Part shown: in pieces, positions 918 through 37,514 of the stretch
Layout: every line of letters begins with the position of its first letter
Numbering within the stretch: the first letter of the stretch is position 1
DNA from: Octopus vulgaris
Lineage: Eukaryota
Length of the DNA: 64,000 bases
Direction: 5' to 3'
Assembly: GCA_951406725.2 (NCBI GenBank)
Contig: OX597821.1
Span: 50,654,001-50,718,000, forward strand
Position numbers and translations under genes: made by a program
The notes under the pieces: generated by a model
What the model was told of the DNA's origin: nothing
Databases searched by the model: none
The model's input: the letters and a program-made list of their open reading frames with translations, nothing else

Positions 918-1060
918 GTGTGTGTGTTTTTGTGTATCTCCCCCCCCCCTCTCTCTCTCTCTATCTATCTATCTGTCTCTCTTTCTCTCTATATATATTT
1001 ACTTATGAATTAAAAGCAGCGCCAGTCTTGATAACATTACCGACCGAACGTAATTAATGA

Positions 1061-1906
1061 ATGCGCTTCACTTGTTTACCGGTTCGCTGCGGAACGGCGC
1101 TGTGGGGACGACTCCCTCATAGCACTGGGTTTTAAAGTACCTGAAAGTCATAGACAGGTGAGAACAACTCGCCCCAGTCCCATCGAGGAGTGTTGGATAC
1201 CAATATTTTGCCATTTTAGTGGCTTTTCGACATCACGACTTTGTACAAATGTGTTTACATTTTTATTTTTATTTGCATTTTGTTTCCTCCCGATATAACC
1301 GAAACGAAAAACCTGGCGGACGCTCAAGGTAAGAGAGCACCTTTAATGCAGGCCTGAAGAAGTCTTACTCCAATGTTTAAAACCGCAAATATTCCAGAAA
1401 CTTTTCACTTGGGACTTTTGCGTGAATTGGCGTTCAAAGTATATACATATAAATACACACACACACACACGCACGCACGCACACCTACACAAGGTGGCGA
1501 GCTGGCAGAATCGTTAGCTCGCCGAGCTAAATACGTAGCGGTATTTCGTCTGCCGCTACGTTCTGAGTTCGAATTCCGCCGAGGTCGACATTGCCTTTCA
1601 TCCTTTCGGGGTCGATTAAATAAGTACCAGTTACGCACTGGGGTCGATATAATCGACTTAATCTGTGTGTCTGTCCTTGTTTGTCCCCTCTGTGCTTAGC
1701 CCCTTGTAGGTAGTAAAGAAATAGGTATGTCGTCTGCCGCTACATTCTGAGTTCAAATTCCGCCGAGGTTGACATTGCCTTTCATCCTTTCGGGGTCGAT
1801 AAATTAAGTACCAGTTACACACTGGGGTCGATGTAAAACCAGTGCTATGAGGGAGTCGTCCCCACAGCGCCGTTCCGCAGCGAACCGGTAAACAAGTGAA
1901 GCGCAT
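1061..1906. repeat. ~73-bp inverted repeat pair (1061-1134 / 1834-1906; duplicate at ~4711-5557)
   Basis: ATGCGCTTCACTTGTTTACCGG...AGCACTGG(G)TTTTA and its reverse complement; the right copy interrupts a SINE. Confidence 0.9.
1491..1725 (+). mobile_element. tRNA-derived SINE with Nin/Deu-like central domain (family A). Other copies at ~5141, 7790(-), 15252, 15390(-), 17930(-), 28270, 60525(-), 62284(-), 62985
   Basis: A-box-like GGCAGAATCG, B-box GAGTTCGAATTCC, then GCCTTTCATCCTTTCGGGGTCGAT..AAGTACCAG; more than 10 copies in the window. Confidence 0.85.
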
Positions 1907-2163
1907 CCGTTGTTTGTCCTCTCTGTGTTTAGCCCCTTGTGGGTAGTAAAGAAATAGGTATTTCGTCCGTCTTTCCGTTCTGTCAGAATTCATATTCCGC
2001 CGAGGTTGACTTTGTCTTTCCTCCTTGTGGGGCACGACAAAAAAAAGTACCAATTGAGCACTGGGATTGATGTAATCGACTTACTCTCTCCACCGAAATT
2101 GCTGGGCTTGTGCCAAAATATACAGTTGTATCAATAATCATGTACGTACATGCATATAGAATA

Positions 2164-2255
<92 letters not shown>

Positions 2256-2679
2256 AAGAGAGGTAGTGAGAGGGAGTTAAAAAGAGAGTGAATGATAAGA
2301 TTGATTCGTAGTAACATGCCATCGGACCTGACTAAATACCAATTTCTCATAAGGTAATAAGTACTTTTCTTCTGTTCTTTAAATTCTATACAATCGTAAC
2401 AAATACCCTCACGTCACATATGCACACACGTATATGTATATCTCAAGCAGAGTACTATTAGACCACTATTTATATCCGTAAAAATTCGACCACCTGCCAG
2501 ATATAATTTTGAAGTTGTAGCGGGAATAAGTAGAATTGCTGATCTATCCTCACAGGGGGGTACCTTCAATTGGTCAGCCTCTTAGTGGTAAAAATAGATT
2601 TGCGTCGGGCCAACGTCTCAATAAAGAGAGAAAACGAAAGTTATGGAAGTAGTGATGACAATTCAAAACAAACACGACC

Positions 2680-2850
2680 TGGGAGAGGGAGGCCTTACCT
2701 CAGGGAAACATATAAGGCGAAATATTGAGGCAAAGGTGGAAAAGCAGGAATCCAACTGGAGAGATGTAGAAAAGACAGCCCAGCGCCGATAACACCGGAT
2801 AATAGTTGTCGATGGCCCATGCTTCATAGGGAAAAAATCGCTTGAAAGAA
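2680..2850 (+). mobile_element. RTE-clade LINE 3' fragment (duplicate at ~6330-6500)
   Basis: Degenerate translation RRNIEAKVEKQESNWRDVEKTAQRR..IVVDGPC resembles the RTE ORF C-terminus. Confidence 0.55.
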
Positions 2851-2889
2851 ATGAAAATGTGAAGCACAACAATGCATGGTAAACAACTG

Positions 2890-2989
2890 NNNNNNNNNNN
2901 NNNNNNNNNNNNNNNNNNNNNNNNNNNNNNNNNNNNNNNNNNNNNNNNNNNNNNNNNNNNNNNNNNNNNNNNNNNNNNNNNNNNNNNNN
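2890..2989. other. Assembly gap (100 N)
   Basis: Run of exactly 100 N. Confidence 0.99.
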
Positions 2990-3162
2990 ACAAATCTGTG
3001 CTATTCAGCGGAATATTTGTTGTAGCCCATCTTTTATACCAAGACAAAACAAATATATGATAACTCTTCCAATCAGTTAAGATCAGAAGCCACGAGAACC
3101 ACTGTCTGGTACTGCATCAGGGCATTGATGCTCCCCCACTACTTCTGCAGGTGATCAGAGAG

Positions 3163-3278
<116 letters not shown>

Positions 3279-3822
3279 ATTGAGTGAGAGAGCAGTGCAT
3301 GCCATCAAAGTGACACTGGGGTAAAATATACGAAGCTCAGAATACACATCATGACTACCCGTCTGATAAGGGTATCACAACCATGCGTGAGCGGCATAAT
3401 GAACTCATATCAAGATAAACAGTGCATGACCTTGCAGGTGGGGCCCATTTAGAATTTTCTTCTGGTCGAGTAACCCATCCCGCTCAAAAGGTCCCCCAAA
3501 TAAGGGTTGTTTAGGGATGTTGAACAAAAAAAAAACCCATGTTTCTATAGGTAAATTATCCAAACCCCAAACAATTCCTCTCAACACATGGCTATGATGC
3601 TCTCCCACTACTTCTGCTCGTGATCAGAGATGCACATATCGTCAGCCGCTAAGGGAATGCACAACTGGTTAAAGTCAAGCAACTGACAAGCAAATATGTG
3701 GTACTGAGCAGAATATTTGCTGCAGTCCATCTTTTATACCAAGACAACACAATGTAGATGATAACACTTCCAATCAGTTAAGATCAGAAGCCATGGAAGC
3801 CACTTCTTCGTACATCATCAGG

Positions 3823-4570: not shown

Positions 4571-5816
4571 GTGTGTGTGTTTTTGTGTATCTCCCCCCCT
4601 CTCTCTCTCTCTATCTATCTATCTGTCTCTCTTTCTCTCTATATATATTTACTTATGAATTAAAAGCAGCGCCAGTCTTGATAACATTACCGACCGAACG
4701 TAATTAATGAATGCGCTTCACTTGTTTACCGGTTCGCTGCGGAACGGCGCTGTGGGGACGACTCCCTCATAGCACTGGGTTTTAAAGTACCTGAAAGTCA
4801 TAGACAGGTGAGAACAACTCGCCCCAGTCCCATCGAGGAGTGTTGGATACCAATATTTTGCCATTTTAGTGGCTTTTCGACATCACGACTTTGTACAAAT
4901 GTGTTTACATTTTTATTTTTATTTGCATTTTGTTTCCTCCCGATATAACCGAAACGAAAAACCTGGCGGACGCTCAAGGTAAGAGAGCACCTTTAATGCA
5001 GGCCTGAAGAAGTCTTACTCCAATGTTTAAAACCGCAAATATTCCAGAAACTTTTCACTTGGGACTTTTGCGTGAATTGGCGTTCAAAGTATATACATAT
5101 AAATACACACACACACACACGCACGCACGCACACCTACACAAGGTGGCGAGCTGGCAGAATCGTTAGCTCGCCGAGCTAAATACGTAGCGGTATTTCGTC
5201 TGCCGCTACGTTCTGAGTTCGAATTCCGCCGAGGTCGACATTGCCTTTCATCCTTTCGGGGTCGATTAAATAAGTACCAGTTACGCACTGGGGTCGATAT
5301 AATCGACTTAATCTGTGTGTCTGTCCTTGTTTGTCCCCTCTGTGCTTAGCCCCTTGTAGGTAGTAAAGAAATAGGTATGTCGTCTGCCGCTACATTCTGA
5401 GTTCAAATTCCGCCGAGGTTGACATTGCCTTTCATCCTTTCGGGGGTCGATAAATTAAGTACCAGTTACACACTGGGGTCGATGTAAAACCAGTGCTATG
5501 AGGGAGTCGTCCCCACAGCGCCGTTCCGCAGCGAACCGGTAAACAAGTGAAGCGCATCCGTTGTTTGTCCTCTCTGTGTTTAGCCCCTTGTGGGTAGTAA
5601 AGAAATAGGTATTTCGTCCGTCTTTCCGTTCTGTCAGAATTCATATTCCGCCGAGGTTGACTTTGTCTTTCCTCCTTGTGGGGCACGACAAAAAAAAGTA
5701 CCAATTGAGCACTGGGATTGATGTAATCGACTTACTCTCTCCACCGAAATTGCTGGGCTTGTGCCAAAATATACAGTTGTATCAATAATCATGTACGTAC
5801 ATGCATATAGAATATA

Positions 5817-5913
<97 letters not shown>

Positions 5914-7736: not shown

Positions 7737-8043
7737 AAATATATCGTTCTAGTTTTAGTATATCTACTGCCAAAGCATGTACATTATTGGTTTCAAAGTT
7801 TGGCACAAGGCCAGCAAGTATGAAGGAGGGGATGAATAGATTACATCAATTCTAGTGCTCTACTGGTACTTATTTTATCGACCTGAAAGGCAAAATTGAC
7901 CTTGGCGGAATTTGAACTCAGAACGTAAAGAGGGACGAAATGTCGCTAAGCATTTTGCCTGGAGTGCTAAAGATTCTGCTAGTTCGCCGCCTAAAAGCAA
8001 AGACAAATATTAATAACATTATATATATATATTTTTTTTTTCG

Positions 8044-9545
8044 GATAAAACCAAGAACTTATACCTGATAGATAACAGCATATATACACAACTCTTACAC
8101 AACAGCATCATTAATAATTACACTAGGGCTAGGCCACAGACATATAATGAAATTAATAAAGAAGCTAGCGTTATCGCCGCTAAACTTAAATTAAATAAAA
8201 AAATAGAAGTCCTCCCCCAAAAAGAGGCCTTTATTACAATTAAAGACCACAAAGAGAACTTCCTTTCCAACCCTAAATGTGAGCTTATCAACCCAGCTAA
8301 GTCAGAACTTGGGATTATTAGTAAAGAAATTTTAGATAAAATAAATGCGAAAATTAAGACCGCTACTAGGCTAGTACAATGGTCCAATAGTATAGAAGTC
8401 GTAGACTGGTTTAAAGCCATTAAGAATAAGAAAAAAGCGAGGTTTACACAATTCGATATTGTTGATTTTTATGCCACTATCTCTAAAGAACTGCTAGATA
8501 ACGCCCTCGTCTTCGCTAGCGATTTCATAGAAAACAATACAAATGATAAGGACATAATCTTCCATGTTAGAAAAACCTTGCTTTTCAGTGAGAACGCAAA
8601 GTGGGTCAAAAATACCGACACAGAGGGTGCTTTCGATGTGAGCATGGGGTCATATGATGGAGCAGGCATTTGCGATCTTATTGGATTTTTTCTCCTAGAT
8701 ACTTTAGGTAAGACATTTCCTGACGTATATTTCGCCATCTACAAAGATGATGCCCTCGCTTTAACCGCTAATACAAATGGACCAGCACAGGATCGTTTTA
8801 GGAAGGATATTATCCAATTAATGAAATATTTCGGACTTAGTATAACTATAGATACTAACCTGACGGTTGTCAATTTCCTAGGCGTTTCCTTAGATCTAAA
8901 TAAGAATATTTATAAGCCTTATAGGAAGCCCAATGATAGACTTAGTTATATTAATGTAGATTCGTGCCATCCCCCTATAGTATTCAAAAATTTAGTTAAA
9001 AATATTAGTAAGAGAATTTCTAGCCTCTCCTCCGATAAGGACATTTTTAATAGCGTTGCCCCAGTTTATAATAAGGCTTTAAAAGATAGTGGATTTAGCG
9101 AAAAAATAAAATATACACCTGTTACTAGCCCAACAGTAAAGAAGAGGAAAAATAGAAATAGGAAGATCATCTGGTTTACACCCCCTTACTCACCCGAGGT
9201 GACCTTCAATATAGGTAAATATTTCTTAACACTGATAGATAGACATTTTCCAGTCAACCATACTTATAGGAAACTCTTCAATAAACATAATTTAAAAATT
9301 AGTTTTAGTTCTACTACCAATTTTAAAAATATAATCACACATAACACACAAAAACCACAAGAAAACAGCTGTTCATGCAGGAATAAAAAATTGTGCCCGC
9401 TAAATGGAGCTTGCATGTCCGAGACCATCATCTATGAAGCTGCCGTGGACTCTATAACCACTAAAGACACCGTTTCGATGAAGAAATACGTGGGCCTTAC
9501 AGAGGGTAATTTCAAGGCCAGGTTCAATAACCACACCTTGAGTTG
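8044..9545 (+). mobile_element. Penelope-like element ORF (RT + Cys linker + GIY-YIG), truncated at both ends
   Basis: Frame is open from ~8044 (DKTKNLY...AFITIKDHKENF...QFDIVDFY...FDVSMGSYDGA...IYKDD...FLGV...WFTPPYS...CSC..CPLNGAC..IIYEA..KYVGLTEGNFKARFNNH) and ends in (TG)n. The ORF-track entry at 8578 is its 3' part. Confidence 0.92.
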
Positions 9546-9901
9546 TTATATGTATAACAACTTGTGTGTCTGTGTGTGTATCTGTGTGTGTGTCTGTGTG
9601 TTTAACTTTTGGACCTACCAAGTTTCATTATTAAGGATGGAAAGTAGTGTGTAGCAAATCTATATATATAAAGCTGAAGTTGTCTGTGTATGGCAGGTTT
9701 GGTAGCCTTCAACTAACACTACCTCCTTCGAGACCCTGCATCGCAAGTTGACCAAAATTGAGAGTATGATAGAAGAAGGCGTGCTCTTTATTCTGTAGAA
9801 GATAAAATTCAAATCGGATCATGTTAACACCAAAAATTATTTACATCAAAAAGGTGCTTTTTTTTCTATGAAAAGCCCTTATGTGTATATATATATATAA
9901 G

Positions 9902-11310: not shown

Positions 11311-13629
11311 CTGTACATATACATACATATATGCATGTTTGATGCTGGGCTCACAGTCATAAGCTTGTCACTTCGATTCCCCGAACAGATTGGTGCGCTG
11401 TATTCTTGAGCAAGGTACTTCCTTTCAGTTACTTATTCATAATTTTGGGCCATTCTTCCTTTATCCACCTTTCAGTTGATAAAAGCAAATGGTGCACTAT
11501 AACCTCACCATGAACGCATTCATACACAGTATTTTTATTCTCCTTTCGTCAGTTGGTATGATGTTTTCTGCGCCTATTTCTTTTCAAAATATTCCGTTTT
11601 TTGACCTATCAGTAATTAAAATATTCTTTTCTCGAACATTACCAAATCAAGTTTTCAATTCTGATTCAACTTGATTATTTTTCCTTAAATCTCTTTTCCA
11701 ACTTAATGTTTTTTCAATGTCAGATCTTTGTCTTTGAATCTTACACAATAATGATTGTAAAATTTTAAAGTAAAAAGCAGTACAATATGCGGGGGATGGG
11801 GTGGATTAGTTCTGGCATTTTTGGTTTCTGGAATCAATACTTTTTCTTATATCTTGGGACGGTATTTCTTTTCTTGCCAAATAAACTCCCGCACTATATA
11901 TTCGTTCTTCACTCGTTTATTATTGTTCTTATTCTATCTTATGTCCACTGTCTGGAAATCTTTCGTCACACATCTGTGACATCTTCAGCGACTCTAACAC
12001 CCACGTTTATTTTCCTTCTAATAGCCAGTGGATGAAGGCGCATGGCCTATTAGTTAGGCGTAGTAGTCAAGATCGCAAGATCGTAGTTGCGATTCACGGC
12101 CCTGGCGTTGCGTTATGTTCTTAAGGAAAATCTTCAGTTCATGTTGTCCCAGTCACCTCAGCTGTAAACGTGTAAACCTTCCACGGACTGGTGTTCCGTT
12201 GAAGAAAATATTGTGATCTTGGGCGCTTATACGCCAAGGAGACCTGGTAATCCACCCGACGAGTCTTATGACTCGAAAAAGTAATGTGATAGCCAATACA
12301 AGTGTAGAATCTAGTCAGTTTAGTTAATTCTTTATATTCTGATATCATATATTCATGAATAATGCTGAAGTGCTTTATAGCAAAAATGGATGACTTGAAG
12401 AATTGCAATATCCATCCTTCTTAGTTGTTTAACTTTTTGCTTTTCTTGGTTAATTTCCCGCAAGTCATCGTGGTCCATGCTTGTGGATGTGTTGTATTAT
12501 CCTTGTGCTATTCTTTTTTTTAAATCTATTATTCGTCCTTATATTCTATATTGTATTACAAATAATAAAGCAAAATTATAGAATATAATATGAGAGAAAT
12601 CAATAAAAATGTACGTTTAATTCCTACAATTTCCCTTGCTGTTCCAATTCCTGCTTCTAGTACGTCTTCCAATATTATTTATGTTCATTATTGGTGTCCC
12701 GGAAGACTTAACTCGGTAGTTGTTTCAAATAGACGATTTCTGGTTGAGAAATCGCTCACAAATTTCAAATAATCTTATCAAGCATGTCTTTGTTCAGAAC
12801 AAATTGTTTGGGTATTTTTTTAACTGCAAAGATTTCTTATTCCTTATTCGTGCTGAATTTCTTTGGTTTCATCAAGATTTCTTTCTATTATTTCCTTTTT
12901 CGCTGATTAAGAAAACTACTCCTCTCCTTTTGTCAATTTTCTATAATATATTTTCTAACATGTTTTTTTCTGATGCTTTGCAAATGTGCCTGACTGGACA
13001 GGATATGTGGGGTTATGTTGTAGTAGCAGTAGTAGTAATAGTAGTAGTAGTGGTAGTAGTAGTAATAATTATTGTTGGTTAGCGCCCGCCTTAGGAGAGT
13101 TCTCATCAAGCAGATTTATCATTATAGACACTCCAGTCATGATCATCCCATCTGTATCTATGACTTCATTATGACACGGTTTCTGTTTTTTCAGATGGTA
13201 GTGTGTGATTTGAGAGAGATTTGGTTGCTATATATAGCTGGTTGATCACGTAAAAGTTTCCTCGTTCGTTTACTGATGTTGTTATGGGGTTGAAAGATGC
13301 TACAGTTGTATGGGACGCTGCCGTAGTGTTTTAGGGCGTTATAACAGTGTTGTAGGGTGGTGTAGTAATGTTTTGAGGTTGTTGTAGTAGTGTTCAGGAA
13401 TGTTCTTGTACTACTGTTAAGAGGTTTTGTAGCAAGGTGTTTTTTGAGGAAGAGTTGTAGTAGTTTGTGGTGTATTATGGTAGTATTTTAGGTTGCTTGC
13501 TGTAATACGGTTGGAGATGTGCTGTAGATAACTTTGCCCTGTGTAAGAAAGCCGGTGTTCTTTTGATGGTGTTGTAGTTGTGTTCTTGAATATTTTAGCG
13601 ATGTTGGGGGAACAAACACAGACATACAA

Positions 13630-19336: not shown

Positions 19337-19339
<3 letters not shown>

Positions 19340-19630
19340 GAGGCGCAATGGCCCAGTGGTTAGGGCAGCGGACTCGCGTTTTCGATTCCCAGACCGGGCG
19401 TTGTGAGTGTTTATTGAGCGAAAACACCTAAAGCTCCACGAGGCTCTGACAGGGTGTGGTGGCGATCCCTGCTGTACTCTTTCACCACAACTTTCTCTCA
19501 CTCTTTCTTCTGTTGGTCTGCTTGCTTAACCAGCGGGGTGGCGTCATTTGAAGGCTAAAACAATGCGAAGCGCATTGAGACCAGTGATGTTTAGCAACAT
19601 CTGATAGCCTGCTCGGTCACGTGATTACGT
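19337..19630 (+). mobile_element. tRNA(Arg)-like SINE (family C). Copies at 21748-22030(+), 53540-53820(-), 53925-54235(-)
   Basis: GGAGGCGCAATGGCCCAGTGGTTAGGGCAGCGGACTCGCG...TTCGATTCC (A/B boxes) and a shared 3' body. Confidence 0.8.
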
Positions 19631-19635
19631 GCTCC

Positions 19636-19686
<51 letters not shown>

Positions 19687-19784
19687 GTTAATCCAAACAA
19701 GAAAACCCAAAAAAACACAACAACGCGAGGACGTGGAACAAATATAATATTATTGGACGCTCAGGAAAGAAGGAAAGAAGGAGG

Positions 19785-19819
19785 GTTAAACGTTTCGAGC
19801 GGAGCTCTTCGTCGGAAAC
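19785..19819 (-). ncRNA. Degenerate minimal hammerhead-like motif in a ~200-bp insert (19687-19890) within (TA)n
   Basis: Minus strand GTTT-CCGACGA-A-GAGC-TCC-GCTC-GAAACGTT-TAAC; U4>C core change. Confidence 0.5.
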
Positions 19820-20104
19820 ATAGGAGGAGGAAAGATCCAGAGAAGGGAAGACAGAGGAAAAAAATCGCCAACGGTACACACGCGGTCACATACACATATA
19901 CATATATATTTATATTTACATATATAATTGAATATAGTTATATATATTTATATACATATATATATGCGTGTGTATATGTATGTGTATGTATGTACATGGA
20001 TATATATATATATATATATAAATACATATACATACACACATATATATGTATGTCTATCTTTCTTACTCATGCTCCATATATATATATGTATTTATATATA
20101 TATG

Positions 20105-20169
<65 letters not shown>

Positions 20170-20179
20170 GTATATATAT

Positions 20180-20754
20180 ATAATAGTTATCGCCATACTA
20201 ATATGGCATTCTTATAAAAATAAGAATAAAGCTGTCCGCTTATTAGCTCCATGAGGCCATCGCCTTAAGTTAGCTATTTGATACACAAACTGTATCCATA
20301 TAACCTTCGAACAAGGGAGGTCAGTCGCTCGACACTACTTGACCGGCTGCCGTTGTTCTCTTTTAGAGAGACTTAGTAATTTTAATATTTCTATTATTGA
20401 AAACAAGTGGATGTATTCCACCGAAGCTAGGTAAATAAAACCTTCGAACAGAGATTGTCAGAAGCGACACCTACTGGTCTGGCTACGCTGCATTGAAAAG
20501 GGGCAATACCCCGAAACGCGTCTGTAGCTGCCGGTCAAGTAGTGTGGAGCGACTGACCTCCCTTGTTCGAAGGTTATATGGATACAGTTTGTGTATCAAA
20601 TAGCTAACTTAAGGCGGTGGCCTCATGGAGCTAATAAGCGGACAGCTTTATTCTTATTTTTATAAGAATGCCATATTAGTATGGCGATAACTATTATTTT
20701 CCGGGAACGCTGCCGTTGTTCTCTTTTAGAGAGACTTAGTAATTTTAATATCTC

Positions 20755-20760
<6 letters not shown>
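20180..20760 (+). mobile_element. Hammerhead-bearing element: inverted arm + 363-nt unit + partial tandem repeat, within (TA)n
   Basis: Inverted arms 20180-20347 / 20530-20697; direct repeat 20346-20398 = 20709-20760. Confidence 0.88.
20487..20528 (+). ncRNA. Type I hammerhead ribozyme (U3-A8 variant)
   Basis: GCTGCA-TTGAAAA-GGGG-CAATA-CCCC-GAAA-CGCG-TC^-TGTAGC. Stem I 6 bp, stem II 4 bp, palindromic ACGCGT stem III. Confidence 0.82.
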
Positions 20761-20810
<50 letters not shown>

Positions 20811-20858
20811 AAACAAGTCAAAATAGAAAATGCTAAAATAATTTTATAAAGAACATTT

Positions 20859-20896
20859 CAGTACCGGTTTCGGTCATTTTGAGACCTTTTCAACTG
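20859..20896 (-). ncRNA. Type I minimal hammerhead ribozyme (U3-A8 variant)
   Basis: Minus strand CAG-TTGAAAA-GGTC-TCAAAAT-GACC-GAAA-CCGG-TA^-CTG; palindromic ACCGGT. Confidence 0.8.
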
Positions 20897-21392
20897 TAAC
20901 GATTAAATAATTAAATTTGGAAAAATTAAAAAGAAAAGTTTTTTTAAAGGAATATTTGTATAGTGTTCAAATATAAGTAGCATTCTGCCTTTCTCTGTCT
21001 CCCTTGTTTGCACTTGTGTGTTCGAGGTCGTTGTGAATTCTTGGTAGGGTAGAAGAAGAAGGTTGATGAGGAGAGGGGGTGGAAAAATTTGGGAGTGCCT
21101 TGATGGTCGTATTTTGAATGGTCAGTGACGGCTAGCAGTTGCAGATCAATTCAGGAGAATATTTCTATTGAAAGGTTTGTTTATGGAATTTGCGTAGGTG
21201 TTTTCCACCCCCTCTCCTCATCAACCTTCTTCTTCTTCTACCCTACCAAGAATTCACAACGACCTCGAACACACAAGTGCAAACAACGGAGACAGAGAAA
21301 GGCAGAATGCCACTTATATTTGAACACTATACAAATATTCCTTTAAAAAAACTTTTCTTTTAATTTTTCCAAATTTAATTATTTAATCGTTA

Positions 21393-21430
21393 CAGTTGAA
21401 AAAGTCTCAAAATGACCGAAACCGGTACTG
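21393..21430 (+). ncRNA. Second copy of the same hammerhead, with a G10.1>A mismatch
   Basis: CAG-TTGAAAA-AGTC-TCAAAAT-GACC-GAAA-CCGG-TA-CTG. Confidence 0.65.
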
Positions 21431-21512
21431 AAATGTTCTTTATAAAATTATTTTAGCATTTTCTATTTTGACTTGTTTTTTCATATATATCAACTCGTGT
21501 GTTCCTTTTCAC

Positions 21513-21601
<89 letters not shown>

Positions 21602-21740: not shown

Positions 21741-22039
21741 CATATATGTGGAGGCGCAATGGCCCAGTGGTTAGGGCAGTGGACTCGCGGTCGTAGGCTC
21801 GCAGTTTCGATTCCCAGACTGGGCGTTGTGAGTGTTCATTGAGCGAAAACACCTAAAAGCTCCACGAGGCTCCGGCAGGGTGTGGCGATCCCTGCTGTAC
21901 TCTTTCACCACTCTTTCTCCCACTCTTTCTTCTGTCGGCCTGCTGGCGTCATTCGAAGGCTAAAACAATGCGAAAGCATTGTGACCAGCGATGTGTAACA
22001 ACATCTGACGGTCTGGTCGGTCACGTGACGTGATATGTG

Positions 22040-29769: not shown

Positions 29770-30322
29770 TTTCTTCTTCTGGAGGGTTAGGGATAACAAG
29801 TCTATTTAAAATCTCATGAATCTTTCTGAGGATTCTTGAAGAATATAGGAATTGCACTTTTCTATATAGGTTGATAATGAAAATATAATCCTGCTTTGCC
29901 TTCTCCTCACCACTCGTCATCGTCGTCATCATCATCATCGTCGTCGTCATTGTTATCGTCATCATCGTCGTTGTCGTCATCATCATCATCATCATCAAAG
30001 CTGTTTCTTTGCGATCGCTTTAGAAATAGCAGTCAAATTTCCCACGATCCATGCAGTAGTATGTTAAAATAGAAAGGTCAAATTGGATAATGTAGGCCTA
30101 GATACACATCCTAAAACATAGGATTCCACGGCTTCTCGGGTTCGTTTAGTCAGGTCTAGCCTAGGACTATACAACAGTAACAACAACTGCAATATGATCA
30201 GTATAATTCAAATTGTAACCTAAGTTTTTTTTTCTCTTATACAGGTCAGGATGCTAAAATATGTTTCGGAACAATAGTTCAAGTTAATTCGAATCATACT
30301 CATTGACGCCATCCCAGTCACA

Positions 30323-31028
30323 ATGGATTGGTTATGGCGCAGTTGCCATAAAATGAAACTCAACATATTTTTCTTTATTATATTTTGTTTTCACAAATGT
30401 CTGTCGAAAACAGAAGTTCAAATTGCCTCCATACTCCCTCGGAACAATACTTTTTTATTTTCCATTGACCGAATGAAACCAGCCTTAGAACTGGGCATCG
30501 AAGCGCTGATGCGGGATACATATCTAAAAAAGCATTTTAACTTTACCGTGATATTTGCTGACTCAGGCTGTTCTATTGCCACAGCAATGAATCAAGCGAT
30601 AGACATTTACATGAACAGATCTGTAAATGTCTTCTTTGGCCCTGCTTGTAATTATGCAGTTGCACCAATTGCTCGCCAAGTAAAATTCTGGAATACACCC
30701 CTAGTAAGTATTGGTGCTACGGCCAGGGATTTTTCCGAGTCCAGAAAAACATTATACCCCTTACTCACCCGGGTCGGTCCCGCTAACTTGAATTATCTTC
30801 CCAGCTTCATTGCGTACACCATGGATTACTATAAATGGAAAAAGTTAAAGTTGCTTTATTATCGGGATGGTTTCGATTCAATTTCTACACAATTTTGTAA
30901 GTTAGTTACGGAAACTCTTCACTACGAAATAAAAAACTTTGTTAACGACACAAAAACGGATCATTACAAAATGGACGACAAAAATATTTCGGAAACACTC
31001 AGGAGTGAAATTGGAAACGAATACGCAG
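30323..31028 (+). CDS. First coding exon of a natriuretic peptide receptor / receptor guanylyl cyclase-like gene (signal peptide + ANF-receptor ligand-binding domain); exon 30245-31028
   Basis: Hydrophobic N-terminus; IASILP, PALELGI, ADSGCS, VFFGPACNYAVAPIAR..FWNTPLVSIGA, YPLLTRVGP and YYKWKK motifs. Acceptor polyT-ACAG ends at 30244; donor CAG|GTAAGT at 31028/31029. No downstream exon recognised. Confidence 0.92.
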
Positions 31029-31190
31029 GTAAGTAAGCGAATTTCATTGTTATTGTGTATTTGTTATATTTCTCTTATTGTCCAAGATAGTAAACTTTGC
31101 TTAGAGTTAATTCATAAACTGAATTTTGCCATCATACACACAGACGCGCGTGCGCGCACACACACACGTACCTATATGTACATATATATA

Positions 31191-32603: not shown

Positions 32604-35600
32604 ATGGAAGAGTTACTGAAAGCAGTTGTAAAACAACAAGAGCAGCAGCAGCAGCAGCAACTACAGAAGTTAAAAGAATTGTTACTGCAGTCGAGAAATA
32701 CGACAGAATAATTTTCAGCAGATGGTGTTGCAAATTCCATTGAAGAATTTCACTACAATCCGGATGAAGGAACTACTTTTGCTGCATATTATAGACAATA
32801 CGAAGACATATTCCGAGAGAAATGCAAGGGATGGTCTAGTGAAAGGAAGGTAAGGCTCCTTTTGCGGAAGCTTGCTACTCCGGAACACGAAAGTTTTTGT
32901 AACTTTATTTTGTCGATAAAGCCCGCGGAATTGTGTTTTGATGAAACGATAAATATTTTGACTAATATTTTTAGCGAGAAAAGTTCGCAGTTTAACATTC
33001 GATGGGAATGTTTAAATTTAAAGACAAACGAGTCCGATGGTTTTGTAACTTGTGCCGGTATGGTTAATAAGGCTTGCGAAAGGTTTAAGCTGGAAGAATT
33101 AACGTCAGATATGTTCAAGTGCCTAATATTCGTTAAAGGGCTAGTGGCAACGGAAGACGCGGAAATTAGAAAAAGAATATTATCAAAGTTGAATCAAGAT
33201 GTGAAACTCACTTTGAGAAAATGGCTGAGGAATGCCAACAAATAATAAACCTTCGAGATGATACAAGAAAGACAGAAGACAAGAATAATAATGTACAAAT
33301 GTGTAAAGAAATTACAGAAAGAAGGAAAAATTTAAATTCAAAACGGTGCTATGGTTGCGGAGATCGACATCTGAGGAAAGATTGTCCCTTTAAAGATAAA
33401 ACCTGTTTTAAGTGTGGTAAAATTGATGGGACATATACAGACGAAATGCCGGTCAAAGAAAATGGTAAAACAGAAGAAAGTCTACTCAACAAAAGTAAAT
33501 TATACCAGACAAAACCGAAAATTTGTGTTGGTAGAAATAAATGGGTTTCAGACGAAAATGCAATTGGATACTGGTTCAAACGTAACGATAATAAATACGG
33601 CAACATGGAGTAAGATAGGCAGGCCGTTGTATAAAAAAAAAAAACTACTAGGATAGCCCACGGTGTGTAAGGGGAACGAGTTCAATTCTTGGGCGAAATT
33701 TCACCAGAAATAAAACTTAAAAACAAGACGCGGAAATGTAAACTAATGGTATCTAAGAATACAATGAATGTGTTCAGGACAGAATTAATGGAAGGATTCG
33801 ACCTGTGGGATCTATCACTGAATTGATTATGTAACAAGGTGAATGCGTCACAGTCTGTGTCAGAGAAAGCATCACAAAAAATGAAATTAAAATTGAAAAA
33901 GATGTACTCTGATATTTTTTCGAAAGAGATCGTTTTGTGTAAAAAAATTAAAGTAAAGTTTGAGTTGAAAGAAAATGCGGTGCCGGTGTTCAAACCGAAA
34001 AGGAATGTACCTTTTGCGGCGTTAAATCAAGTTGAGAAGGAATTAAAAAGATTGGAAGACATGGAAGTAATTGCAAAAATAGGCTCCTCTGAGTGGGCGG
34101 CTCCTACGGTATATATAAAAAGGAACAACAACGAGGTAAGAGTATGTGCGGACTTCTCAACTGGTTTTAATGATTGTTAAAAAAATTACAAATATCCACT
34201 TCCAAACCCAAAAGAAATATTTGCCAAGTGCAATGGAAGGAAATTTTTTTCCAAGCTGCACTTGTCAGAGGCCTACCTCCAATTACTGGTAGATGAAGAA
34301 TGTGCTAAGTATTAACAATCAATACTCATAAAGGTCTGTACCATTTCAAAAGACTGCCATTTGGGGTAAAGGTCGCACCAGCAATATTTCAGCAAGTGAT
34401 GGATATTATGCTAGCAGACTGTGAGTTCGCGGTCCCATACTTGGATGATATATTGATCAAAAGTGAATCAAGGGACCAACATATTGAACATATAGAATAT
34501 GTGATTACGGGTTCAAAGTAAAGGAGGATAAATGTGAATTTTTCTTGACAAAAATTAAGTACTTAGGACAGGTGATCGATGAAAACAGAGGAAAACCGGA
34601 CCCTTCTAGGATCGACGCGATAAAAACAATGCCTGCTCCCACTAACAAAACAACACTACAAGCATTTCTAGGTTTGGTAAGTAATTACCAGTTGTACATA
34701 CCTAAAATGTATGAGCTAAGAGCTCAGTTGAATAAGTTGCTAAAGAAAGACTCGAAATGGAGCTGGACAAACGAATATCAGAAATAATTCAAGGAATTAA
34801 AAAAAGCGGTTAACATCAGAGTTATCATTAACTCATTTCGACCCAAATCTGAAAATAATTGTAGCATCGGATGCCTGTGAATATGGTATAGGAACTGTGA
34901 TATTGCATAAATTTAATGATGGTAAAATCAAAGCTATTGCACATGCATCGGGAGTTCTATTACCAGCAGAAAGAAACTACAGCCAGATTGTAAAAGAGGC
35001 GTTATCATTAATCTTCGCAGTAAAAAAAAAATCCATAAATTCTTACATGGAAGGAAGTTAACACTTCAGACGGATCGCCGACCGTTATTGTCTATTTTTG
35101 GTTCGAAAAAGGGTATCCCAACGCACTCAGCAAACCGCTTACAGCGCTGGGGGACTACTCTGTTGAACTACGATTTCCAGATGGAGTTTTTGCAATCAAT
35201 GAAAATGGGACACGCAGACGGGTTGTCTAGGCTAATTCCAAAATATGAGAAACCTTTTGAAGACACGGTGATTGCATCGTTAAAACTAGAAATGGAGCTG
35301 AAGAACATTTTGTGCAATGTAGTACGTGATTTGCTGGTAACGCTGGAAGCAATTAAATTGAAATGATAGGTTCATAAATAAGATTTTTAAAATGTTGTGT
35401 AACACGAAAAATATTAATGAGCGGGACGCAGGTTCAAAGCACTATTCAGTATGTGATGCAGTATTATTATGCACAAAGAGTGGTAATACCTGAAGCACTG
35501 CGAAACAGTATTAAAAGACTTTCATGTTGGACATCATGGGATTGTCCGGCGATTGTCCGGATGAAGAGCCTTATGAGAAGTTACGTTTATTGGCCGAATA

Positions 35601-35970
35601 TGGACAAGCAAATTGAGAGACTGGCAAAAGTGTAGGGGATGCGCTAGGCCAGCAAAGGAACCCCCTGTGCAGATTCAGCCGTGGCCAAAAACGGATTCGG
35701 CATGGTCTAGACTACATGTGAATTTCGCAGGACCAATAAATGGCTCTTATTATATCATTGTGGTGGATAGCTATTCCAAATGGCCTGAAGTGTGTAAATG
35801 TTCAAAGCCAAGCACAAGTGTGACTATCAACTTCTTGGAAGATACGATCGTGTCAGATAATGGTACACAATTCACGGCGAAGGATTTCGAAAGATTCTGT
35901 AAGTCGGTTCAGAAGAAGCATGTGTTAACTCCGCCATACCATCCAAGGTCAAATGAGTTAGCGGAAAGAT
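32604..35970 (+). pseudogene. Ty3/Gypsy (Mag/K02A2.6-like) gag-pol, frameshifted and 3'-truncated at a TA tract
   Basis: Gag with CYGCGDRHLRKDC and CFKCGK knuckles; protease LDTGS; RT SEWAAP, RLPFG, YLDD and KYLG; RNase H VASDAC and HADGLSRL; integrase [22 protein letters not shown] and PYHPRSN..AER. Confidence 0.95.
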
Positions 35971-36252
35971 TATATATATACATATATATATACACATATA
36001 TATATACAAATATATATACATATATATATACACATATATATATACATATATATATATACACATATATATATACAAATATATATACATATATATATACACA
36101 CATATATATACATATATATATATACACATATAGATATACACATATATATTTATATATATATATATATATACACATATATACATATATATATATATATACA
36201 TATATATAAATACATACATATATTACATATATATATATATATACATACACAT

Positions 36253-36294
<42 letters not shown>

Positions 36295-36300
36295 GCATAT

Positions 36301-36714
36301 ATGGGTACAGGACGTCACAAAACGTTAACAACATGAAATAAGAAAACAACATGAATTGCGAAATACGAAAACATGAAATACGAAGGCAAACCTGGGTATG
36401 TGAACAACGAAAGAAACAAATTGAAAACAAGACAAGTAACATAAGGAACTACCCTTCATCAGTTGTCGGCTGTTTATCTACTCCAAATTTCGAGCAATTT
36501 TCGACAATACGTGTCTTCGAGGAACCAAAATAAATTTTGGGATTGGTGGAGGGTCAAATTTGGTAACAAAAACAGAACATACTACAAAGCAAACGAAAAC
36601 AAACAGGGAGGGCCGTTATGTTACTTGTCTTTTTTTTCCATTTGTTTCTCATACCCAAGTTTGTCTTTGCATTTCATGTTATGTTGTTTACGTTTTGTAA
36701 CGTCCTGTACCCAT
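36301..36714. mobile_element. Fold-back element in (TA)n with ~100-150-bp imperfect inverted arms; related copies at 32215-32461 and ~50640-50965
   Basis: ATGGGTACAGGACGTCACAAAACG...CGTTTTGTAACGTCCTGTACCCAT; CTGATGA-containing segment between the arms. Confidence 0.75.
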
Positions 36715-37189
36715 ATATGCATATACATACATATATATACATAAGTACGTACATATATGTATGAACATATGCATATATATACTCTTTTACTCTTTTACCT
36801 GTTTCAGTCATTTGACTGCGGCCATGCTGGAGCACCGCCTTTACTCGACCGAATTGACCCCGAGACTTATTCTTTGTAAGCCCAGTACTTATTTTATCGG
36901 TCTTTTTTGCCGAACCGCTAAGTGACGGGGACGTAAACACACCAGCATCGGTTGTCAAGCAATGCTGGGGGGGTCAAACACAGACACACACACACATATA
37001 TATATATATACATATATACGACAGGTTTCTTTCAGTTTCCGTCTACAAAATCCACTCACAAAGCATTGGTCGGCCCGGGGCTATAGCAGAATACACTTGC
37101 CCAAGATGCCACGCAGTGGGACTGAACCCGGAACCATGTGGTTGGTTAGCAAGCTACTTACCACACAGCCACACCTGTATGAATAATAT

Positions 37190-37514
37190 ATTTCTAAATC
37201 TCTGAGAGATTTAGAAATCTATTATTTCTATTTTTGAAATTAGTGAATGTATTTCACTTGAATTATATGTTTACAGAGGAAGATAGGCATCGACAGCTAG
37301 CAAGCCATGCTATTCCAGACTGATGACGAGCAATGACTCAGAAACTAGTCTCTTAATGCTGGATTTACTGGATGGATGTGCTTATCTCCCCTTTTGTAAA
37401 GATAAGGACAGGAAATGTGTCATGGCCGACAGGAAGCGGTGCTTCCTAGGGCTAAATAGCAGTTGTATTCTTCCCTTTCATGGGACTGCCACATTAAGTT
37501 GACAACATACCACC

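Follow-up and report, generated by a model that had tools for sequence, protein, structure and literature searches.

Layout of the insertion

The window, by which we mean the whole 64-kb stretch of octopus DNA analysed here, is DNA of animal type with many microsatellites and interspersed repeats. At 20180-20760 it carries an insertion of 581 bp in total, in which an inverted arm is joined head-to-head to a direct copy of a non-coding 363-bp unit (41.6% GC), and both ends of the insertion sit in (TA)n. The parts of the insertion and its surroundings are the following.

20075-20182, no strand: TA-rich microsatellite target, left side
20180-20347, minus strand: 5'-truncated copy of the unit in inverted orientation, corresponding to 20530-20697 in sense, outer end in (TA)n, inner end at +8 from the predicted ribozyme cut
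20343-20352, no strand: head-to-head inversion junction, exact overlap 20346-20347, or 20346-20350 with one mismatch
20346-20760, plus strand: direct copy, about 1.14 turns of the non-coding unit, repeat spacing 363
20691-20697, plus strand: putative priming site A (CTATTAT), the inverted arm's outer end; other copies reach TA-rich flanks at 20696 and 20699
20698-20760, plus strand: one-sided tail of 63 nt ending on putative priming site B, the second CTATTAT (20754-20760, equivalent to 20391-20397)
20758-20806, no strand: (TA)n target, right side

Inverted-repeat comparison within the 64-kb window pairs 20180-20350 with 20527-20697 at 98% identity. The clean arm measures 168 bp (20180-20347 against 20530-20697) and has two internal mismatches, at 20260/20617 and 20331/20546, in agreement with the mirrored arm described in a sequence-only reading of the locus; allowing one further mismatch, at 20348/20529, lengthens it by 3 nt, to 20527. 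Between the two arms lie 182 nt (20348-20529) that include a whole, uncut ribozyme. Within the direct copy, 20346-20397 is repeated at 20709-20760 with a spacing of 363 and one difference. The overlap at the junction is 2 nt if exact, or 5 nt with one central mismatch; about 1.2% of position pairs drawn at random from the unit show an overlap of the latter kind, and the same 5-nt overlap is available at 8 unit positions for the junction's partner end.

The motif CTATTAT is present at only two places in the unit, and the outer ends of the insertion fall exactly on them, the inverted arm ending on 20691-20697 (site A) and the direct part on 20754-20760 (site B). The 63-nt tail, found on one side only, lies between these two ends. 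The direct part starts about 11-13 nt beyond site A and continues across its own hammerhead. TA repeats occupy both flanks, and a target-site duplication is unreadable amid them. No stop-to-stop frame of at least 120 aa was found within 20218-20760, nor any RT plus GIY-YIG frame inside the element.

The arms agree at 15 of 16 family-variable places. Together with the two internal differences, this agreement fits one real, slightly aged event from a single source. An inversion made after insertion, by rearrangement or by a second adjacent insertion, or produced by an assembly fold-back, is very improbable. The exact junction is indeed absent from the joints listed in the four public runs described below, but each arm is the family-like one at one of the two internal differences: the inverted arm has the majority letter of the family at 20617, and the direct copy agrees with the family at 20546. 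A read artefact would not yield this pattern. The layout recurs in the adjacent element, 20806-21515, and is general for Penelope-type elements (PLEs) according to the available sections of PMC8557442 and PMC3846280.

The hammerhead motif

Two further features, both predicted, lie next to or around the position at which the inverted arm stops.

20487-20528, plus strand: predicted type I hammerhead motif, helix I 20487-20492/20523-20528, stem II 20500-20512
20430-20585, plus strand: long predicted hairpin with the hammerhead at its apex (extended stem I), z -6.7 against shuffles

The hammerhead has the core TTGAAAA at 20493-20499, in which U3-A8 replaces C3-G8, followed by a 4-bp stem II, GAAA-CGC-GTC, a 6-bp stem I and the GUC at 20520-20522, with the predicted cut after 20522. 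All core elements of a type I hammerhead are present, namely the 3-8 pair, G5-A6, A9, GAAA, the NUH site and helices I and II; helix III is minimal and palindromic. The motif scan places the start of the arm 8 nt after the predicted GUC cut at 20522, as had been claimed from the sequence, or at +5 if the imperfect overlap is counted. Only one hammerhead lies in the 20180-20760 copy, and across the 64 kb, with both strands scanned under relaxed settings, there are two type I hammerhead motifs with helices I and II, the second being in the neighbouring element. At the gathering score Rfam returned 0 matches in the whole window, and among 60 weak Rfam matches none was a hammerhead at the place of the motif, the microRNA rows stemming from TA repeats and hairpins.

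Compared with shuffled sequences, the unit folds much more stably (z -6.8). In predicted folds of the monomer the active core is not formed and helix III is not stable, whereas the predicted fold of two copies has a 6-bp helix III between them. Helix I occupies 20523-20528 on its 3' side in the predicted fold; pairing skips 20529 and resumes at 20530, outside helix I. In this model the stop of the arm thus coincides with the margin of helix I, besides being close to the cut. Cleavage at 20522 is itself a prediction. By analogy the motif would be of the dimer-type hammerhead design of PMC4209133, the available text of which reports the U3-A8 variant from Schistosoma PLEs and weak cutting of dimer-type minimal motifs in vitro; in the accessible part of bioRxiv 10.64898/2026.07.22.740005, cleavage is reported for 1 of 9 frog dimers. 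We weighed the U3-A8 core as a possible novelty and dismissed it, since PMC4209133 already describes it.

Other elements in the window

A second PLE-type insertion of another family but the same layout (20806-21515) adjoins the first. Its inverted arms are 284 bp long and its spacer 114 nt; the tail is short, about 25-30 nt, and each end overlaps the target in a TATA-like sequence. Its hammerhead, TTGAAAA with the same U3-A8 core, has a predicted cut after 21427; its inverted arm continues through the ribozyme, and stem II is altered in the right-arm copy. At 19690-19890 (minus strand) lies a short TA-flanked element of another family, probably a PLE 3' end. Its hammerhead-like core reads CCGACGA, with C at position 4; stem II has 4 bp and helix III is nearly absent. 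An older, diverged inverted-arm element sits in TA repeats at 36290-36725; its minus strand has only the half core CTGATGA, and a complete hammerhead was not found there. A hammerhead-like half motif, CTGAAGA with a 6-bp stem II and GAAA, is present at 11945-11995 (minus strand), its helices I and III being unconvincing.

At 8017-9654 (plus strand) a 545-aa stop-to-stop frame resembles a PLE RT with a C-terminal GIY-YIG part. The top match of a feature search scores 0.95, with RVT_1 in 76%, HTH_animal in 91% and GIY-YIG in 11% of its members, while the frame had no Pfam or PDB match. A PLE-like RT/GIY-YIG frame is thereby suggested, and nothing ties it to the 363-bp unit. A 252-aa frame at 30278-31036 (plus strand) resembles, by eye, the opening exon of a gene for a receptor guanylyl cyclase or a peptide receptor. 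Decayed Gypsy-like frames, with zinc knuckle, RNase H and integrase-like stretches recognised by eye, occupy 32712-36209. Two copies of a SINE of about 290 bp, tRNA-like by eye, flank the region at 19337-19635 and 21745-22033. Near-identical blocks at about 950-2260 and 4600-5910, some 3.65 kb apart with an N gap near 2800-2900 between them, are either a local duplication or an assembly overlap.

Copies of the family in public data

At least half of the stretch's words are contained in 20 of the 24 public runs listed (11 studies, several organism codes), and none of those listed as containing them is an RNA run. Four runs, all consisting of assembled contigs, were compared with the unit-length stretch 20398-20757, and the family proved abundant, with 959-3822 aligned contigs per run. 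Across the core, 20493-20499, no variant at 1% or more was listed in these four runs. Within the window the unit matches only a relic of its tail region at 37204-37257, 80% identical, and exact-pattern scans for further copies in genome, viral and metagenome contig collections gave no matches. The family is young and very abundant, with an unvaried core and two sharply defined priming motifs, and it was not found described in literature searches.

Contigs cross 20708/20709 and pass from 20757 to 20398 (the latter in 4-9 contigs per run) in all four runs. Because both unit junctions are crossed, the unit is circularly permuted, with 20346 no natural start. This changes one part of the sequence-only reading, which had seen a full unit plus a tandem restart of about 52 bp: the repeat 20709-20760 is real, but 20346/20709 is no natural boundary, and since other copies run across it the "restart" is better read as the 63-nt tail, 20698-20760. 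Among the best 24 of 279 loose-end rows, TA-rich loose ends follow 20696 (7 contigs, run X1) and 20699 (1 contig, run X3), which makes site A a recurrent 3' end.

Inverted copies are also represented. At least four strand-changing joints, 20457/20544, 20502/20648, 20538/20625 and 20578/20720, are among the 11 joints listed (12 of 45 table rows). The first of these is possibly an artefact of the internal hairpin, and statistics were computed with and without it. The joint table is insensitive, the window's own junction being absent from it, and does not distinguish head-to-head from tail-to-tail joints.

Position of breakpoints relative to the predicted cut

The arm's inner end represents the 5' terminus of a reverse-transcribed copy. 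The sequence-only reading took this breakpoint as the mark of the 5' end of a self-cleaved RNA; a trimmed cut end could indeed lie there. Under uniform stops, the chance of one arm stopping within +1 to +8 of the cut is 2-5%, before allowing for a landmark chosen post hoc.

Setting the breakpoints of the other copies against the NUH site is a weak test, with four joints only. None of the four joints listed in the four runs has a coordinate within 10 nt of the cut. Two of four fall within +1 to +25 (P 0.11) and three of four within 25 nt on either side (P 0.08, or P 0.21 without 20457/20544). The mean nearest distance between joint and cut, over the four joints listed, is 28.5 nt (P 0.09 against uniform placement; P 0.16 without 20457/20544). 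Finding 0/4 near the cut has a probability of 0.004 if 75% of joints lie there, 0.06 if half do and 0.32 if a quarter do. A dominant, sharp breakpoint hotspot at the cut is thus disfavoured by the 0/4, with which a minority class is compatible; a looser clustering of joints at the ribozyme is compatible with the three of four joints within 25 nt.

Five 5' ends were mapped in three hammerhead-bearing elements of the window, and only that of the inverted arm 20180-20347 is near its cut. The direct part of 20180-20760 begins at -174 from the predicted cut, the element 20806-21515 has 5' ends at -226 (inverted arm) and -340 (direct part) from its own, and 19690-19890 starts at about -101 from its own. 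The last two elements, which serve as in-window controls, are of other families with ribozymes nearer their 3' ends, and show only that read-through is common.

The cleavage footprint rests on one copy, is neither supported nor excluded by the small outside sample, and is unproven. Run-off at the 5' end of a cut RNA is rather doubtful as the origin of the arm's inner end. The broader claim, that in vivo the RNA template owes its 5' end to hammerhead cleavage and that a separate class of insertions, comprising inverted arms as well as plain truncations, stops within about 10 nt of the cut, we consider unlikely. No paper mapping PLE inversion breakpoints against the hammerhead cut was found in a search of mainly open-access literature.

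Cut RNA, snap-back or double priming

Cleavage could enter through twin priming on one partly cut multimeric RNA, an explanation that is doubtful though far from negligible. The RNA would owe its 5' end to cleavage by the hammerhead of the upstream unit, with the next ribozyme left uncut; the second cDNA would have run off the cut end, lost 4-7 nt and annealed to a first cDNA stopped just short of the second priming site, and the junction would be the footprint of cleavage in a living cell. The arm's end at +5 to +8 from the cut is as this explanation would have it, and the start of the direct part, about 11-13 nt past site A, has the geometry expected for both primers on one RNA, the arrangement of L1 twin priming in the available part of PMC2912911. 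Two motif copies can fold with a 6-bp helix III, and partly cut multimers are plausible because dimer-type motifs cut weakly in vitro. Joint 20578/20720 has a similar second coordinate, but in this joint of the same geometry the partner end is at +56. Other observations run against a cut template: none of the four other joints lies in +1 to +10 (0.06 if half of all joints were there, 0.32 if a quarter), the best 24 of 279 loose-end rows include no 5' end at 20523-20530, and anole PLE RNA reads neither begin nor end at the cut, as far as the accessible text of PMC11167929 reports.

The sequence-only reading had coupled RT run-off to a simple snap-back, which does not suit the anatomy: 182 nt separate the arms, and the outer end lies at the recurrent (TA)n priming site. 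A variant in which a single RT made the direct part, after which the 3' end of the cDNA folded onto a quasi-palindromic pentamer in its own sequence and was copied back to 20697, is quite unlikely. Such folding back, or alternatively self-priming on an antisense template, would let microhomology, not the ribozyme, set the position of the junction. The 5-nt one-mismatch overlap (about 1.2% of random pairs) and the alleles common to both arms agree with it, and self-priming is proposed for PLE inversions in the part of PMC3846280 available. It leaves unexplained, nonetheless, that the arm's outer end is on CTATTAT, where other copies meet TA-rich flanks, and the overlap alone cannot pick the position, as 8 unit positions offer the same 5-nt match.

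Both outer ends lie on the only CTATTAT motifs, and site A is a (TA)n junction in other copies as well; because of this, the anatomy points to two priming events, one per target strand, rather than to snap-back. The reading that we prefer, and for which we see the chances as evenly balanced, is that a 363-nt non-autonomous, retrozyme-like hammerhead unit was put into (TA)n by a PLE RT/GIY-YIG enzyme acting in trans through double priming. Both target strands would be nicked. One would prime on the RNA at the CTATTAT of site B and be extended for about 413 nt through an uncut or circular ribozyme, the other would prime at the CTATTAT of site A and be extended for about 170 nt, and a short microhomology would join the two cDNA 3' ends into the head-to-head junction. 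A direct part of more than unit length would require an uncut multimer or a circle, as is proposed in the accessible part of PMC4209133. The stop of the second cDNA at the base of hammerhead helix I would be due to chance or to stalling at the fold, and cleavage would be unnecessary. Against a chance stop stands the arm's end 5-8 nt from the cut, a 2-5% event under uniform stops. Each of these steps is read from the anatomy of the insertion.

Double priming of this kind is consistent with the activities of a purified PLE protein described in the available sections of PMC11167929: it nicks and extends both strands, two internal RNA start sites bound the tail, and it works with dead ribozymes, so that hammerhead cleavage is not required. 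Priming there is without homology to the target, whereas priming of the octopus insertion would have involved TAT microhomology. The role of PLE-type hammerheads in mobilisation is called unclear in the accessible text of PMC8557442. As it stands, 20180-20760 is unremarkable as an instance of a known insertion pattern, and its family was not found described. The value of the 363-bp family is as a test bed for whether hammerhead cutting shapes Penelope-type insertions. If the cut does set the 5' end, the family would hold a genomic record of PLE-type hammerheads acting during mobilisation, a role of cleavage that the work in PMC11167929, in the text available, could not find in vitro or in RNA reads.

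Comparison with known systems

The source papers named in this section are cited for the portions of their text that were available. Two primed cDNAs joined by microhomology, as proposed here, are shared with L1 twin priming (PMC2912911), and R2 offers an earlier case in which a ribozyme cut fixes the 5' junction of an insertion (PMC3774820). Unlike those of L1 and R2, the octopus insertion has no poly(A) tail and its ribozyme is a hammerhead, not HDV-like; unlike in R2, the match of cut and junction is in one copy only.

The ribozyme itself is closest to the hammerheads of the Schistosoma Cercyon PLEs (Cervera and de la Pena 2014, PMC4209133), with which it shares the replacement of C3-G8 by U3-A8 and a helix III that is minimal and palindromic, implying cutting as a dimer. 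The Cercyon minimal motifs have a long helix II, whereas the octopus helices are of canonical sizes, 4 bp for helix II and 6 bp for helix I.

The typical PLE insertion has an inverted 5'-truncated copy, a tail at one end and a (TA)n bias (PMC8557442, PMC3846280). In keeping with endonuclease-bearing PLEs (Craig et al. 2021, PMC8557442; Arkhipova et al. 2013, PMC3846280), the octopus insertion joins an inverted pLTR-type copy head-to-head to a direct copy, has a one-sided tail, targets an AT-rich microsatellite and carries a hammerhead in the repeat. It differs from them in having no coding region, a tail of 63 nt against the published 30-40 bp, and a hammerhead about 175-240 nt from its 3' ends.

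With animal non-LTR retrozymes (Cervera and de la Pena 2020, PMC7229834; Li et al., bioRxiv 10.64898/2026.07.22.740005) the likeness, known from DNA sequence alone, lies in the unit: it is non-coding, 363 bp long, below 45% GC, strongly self-paired and circularly permuted, and has one type I hammerhead. It thereby falls among the low-GC non-coding units of 150-450 bp with one type I hammerhead that characterise non-LTR retrozymes, and its size matches the 350-390 bp repeats of mussel retrozymes. Li et al. define "active" retrozymes by two consecutive hammerhead units, and the octopus copy, with one ribozyme, falls outside that definition. Unlike non-LTR retrozymes, the octopus insertion bears the inverted arm and tail of PLE-type ends.
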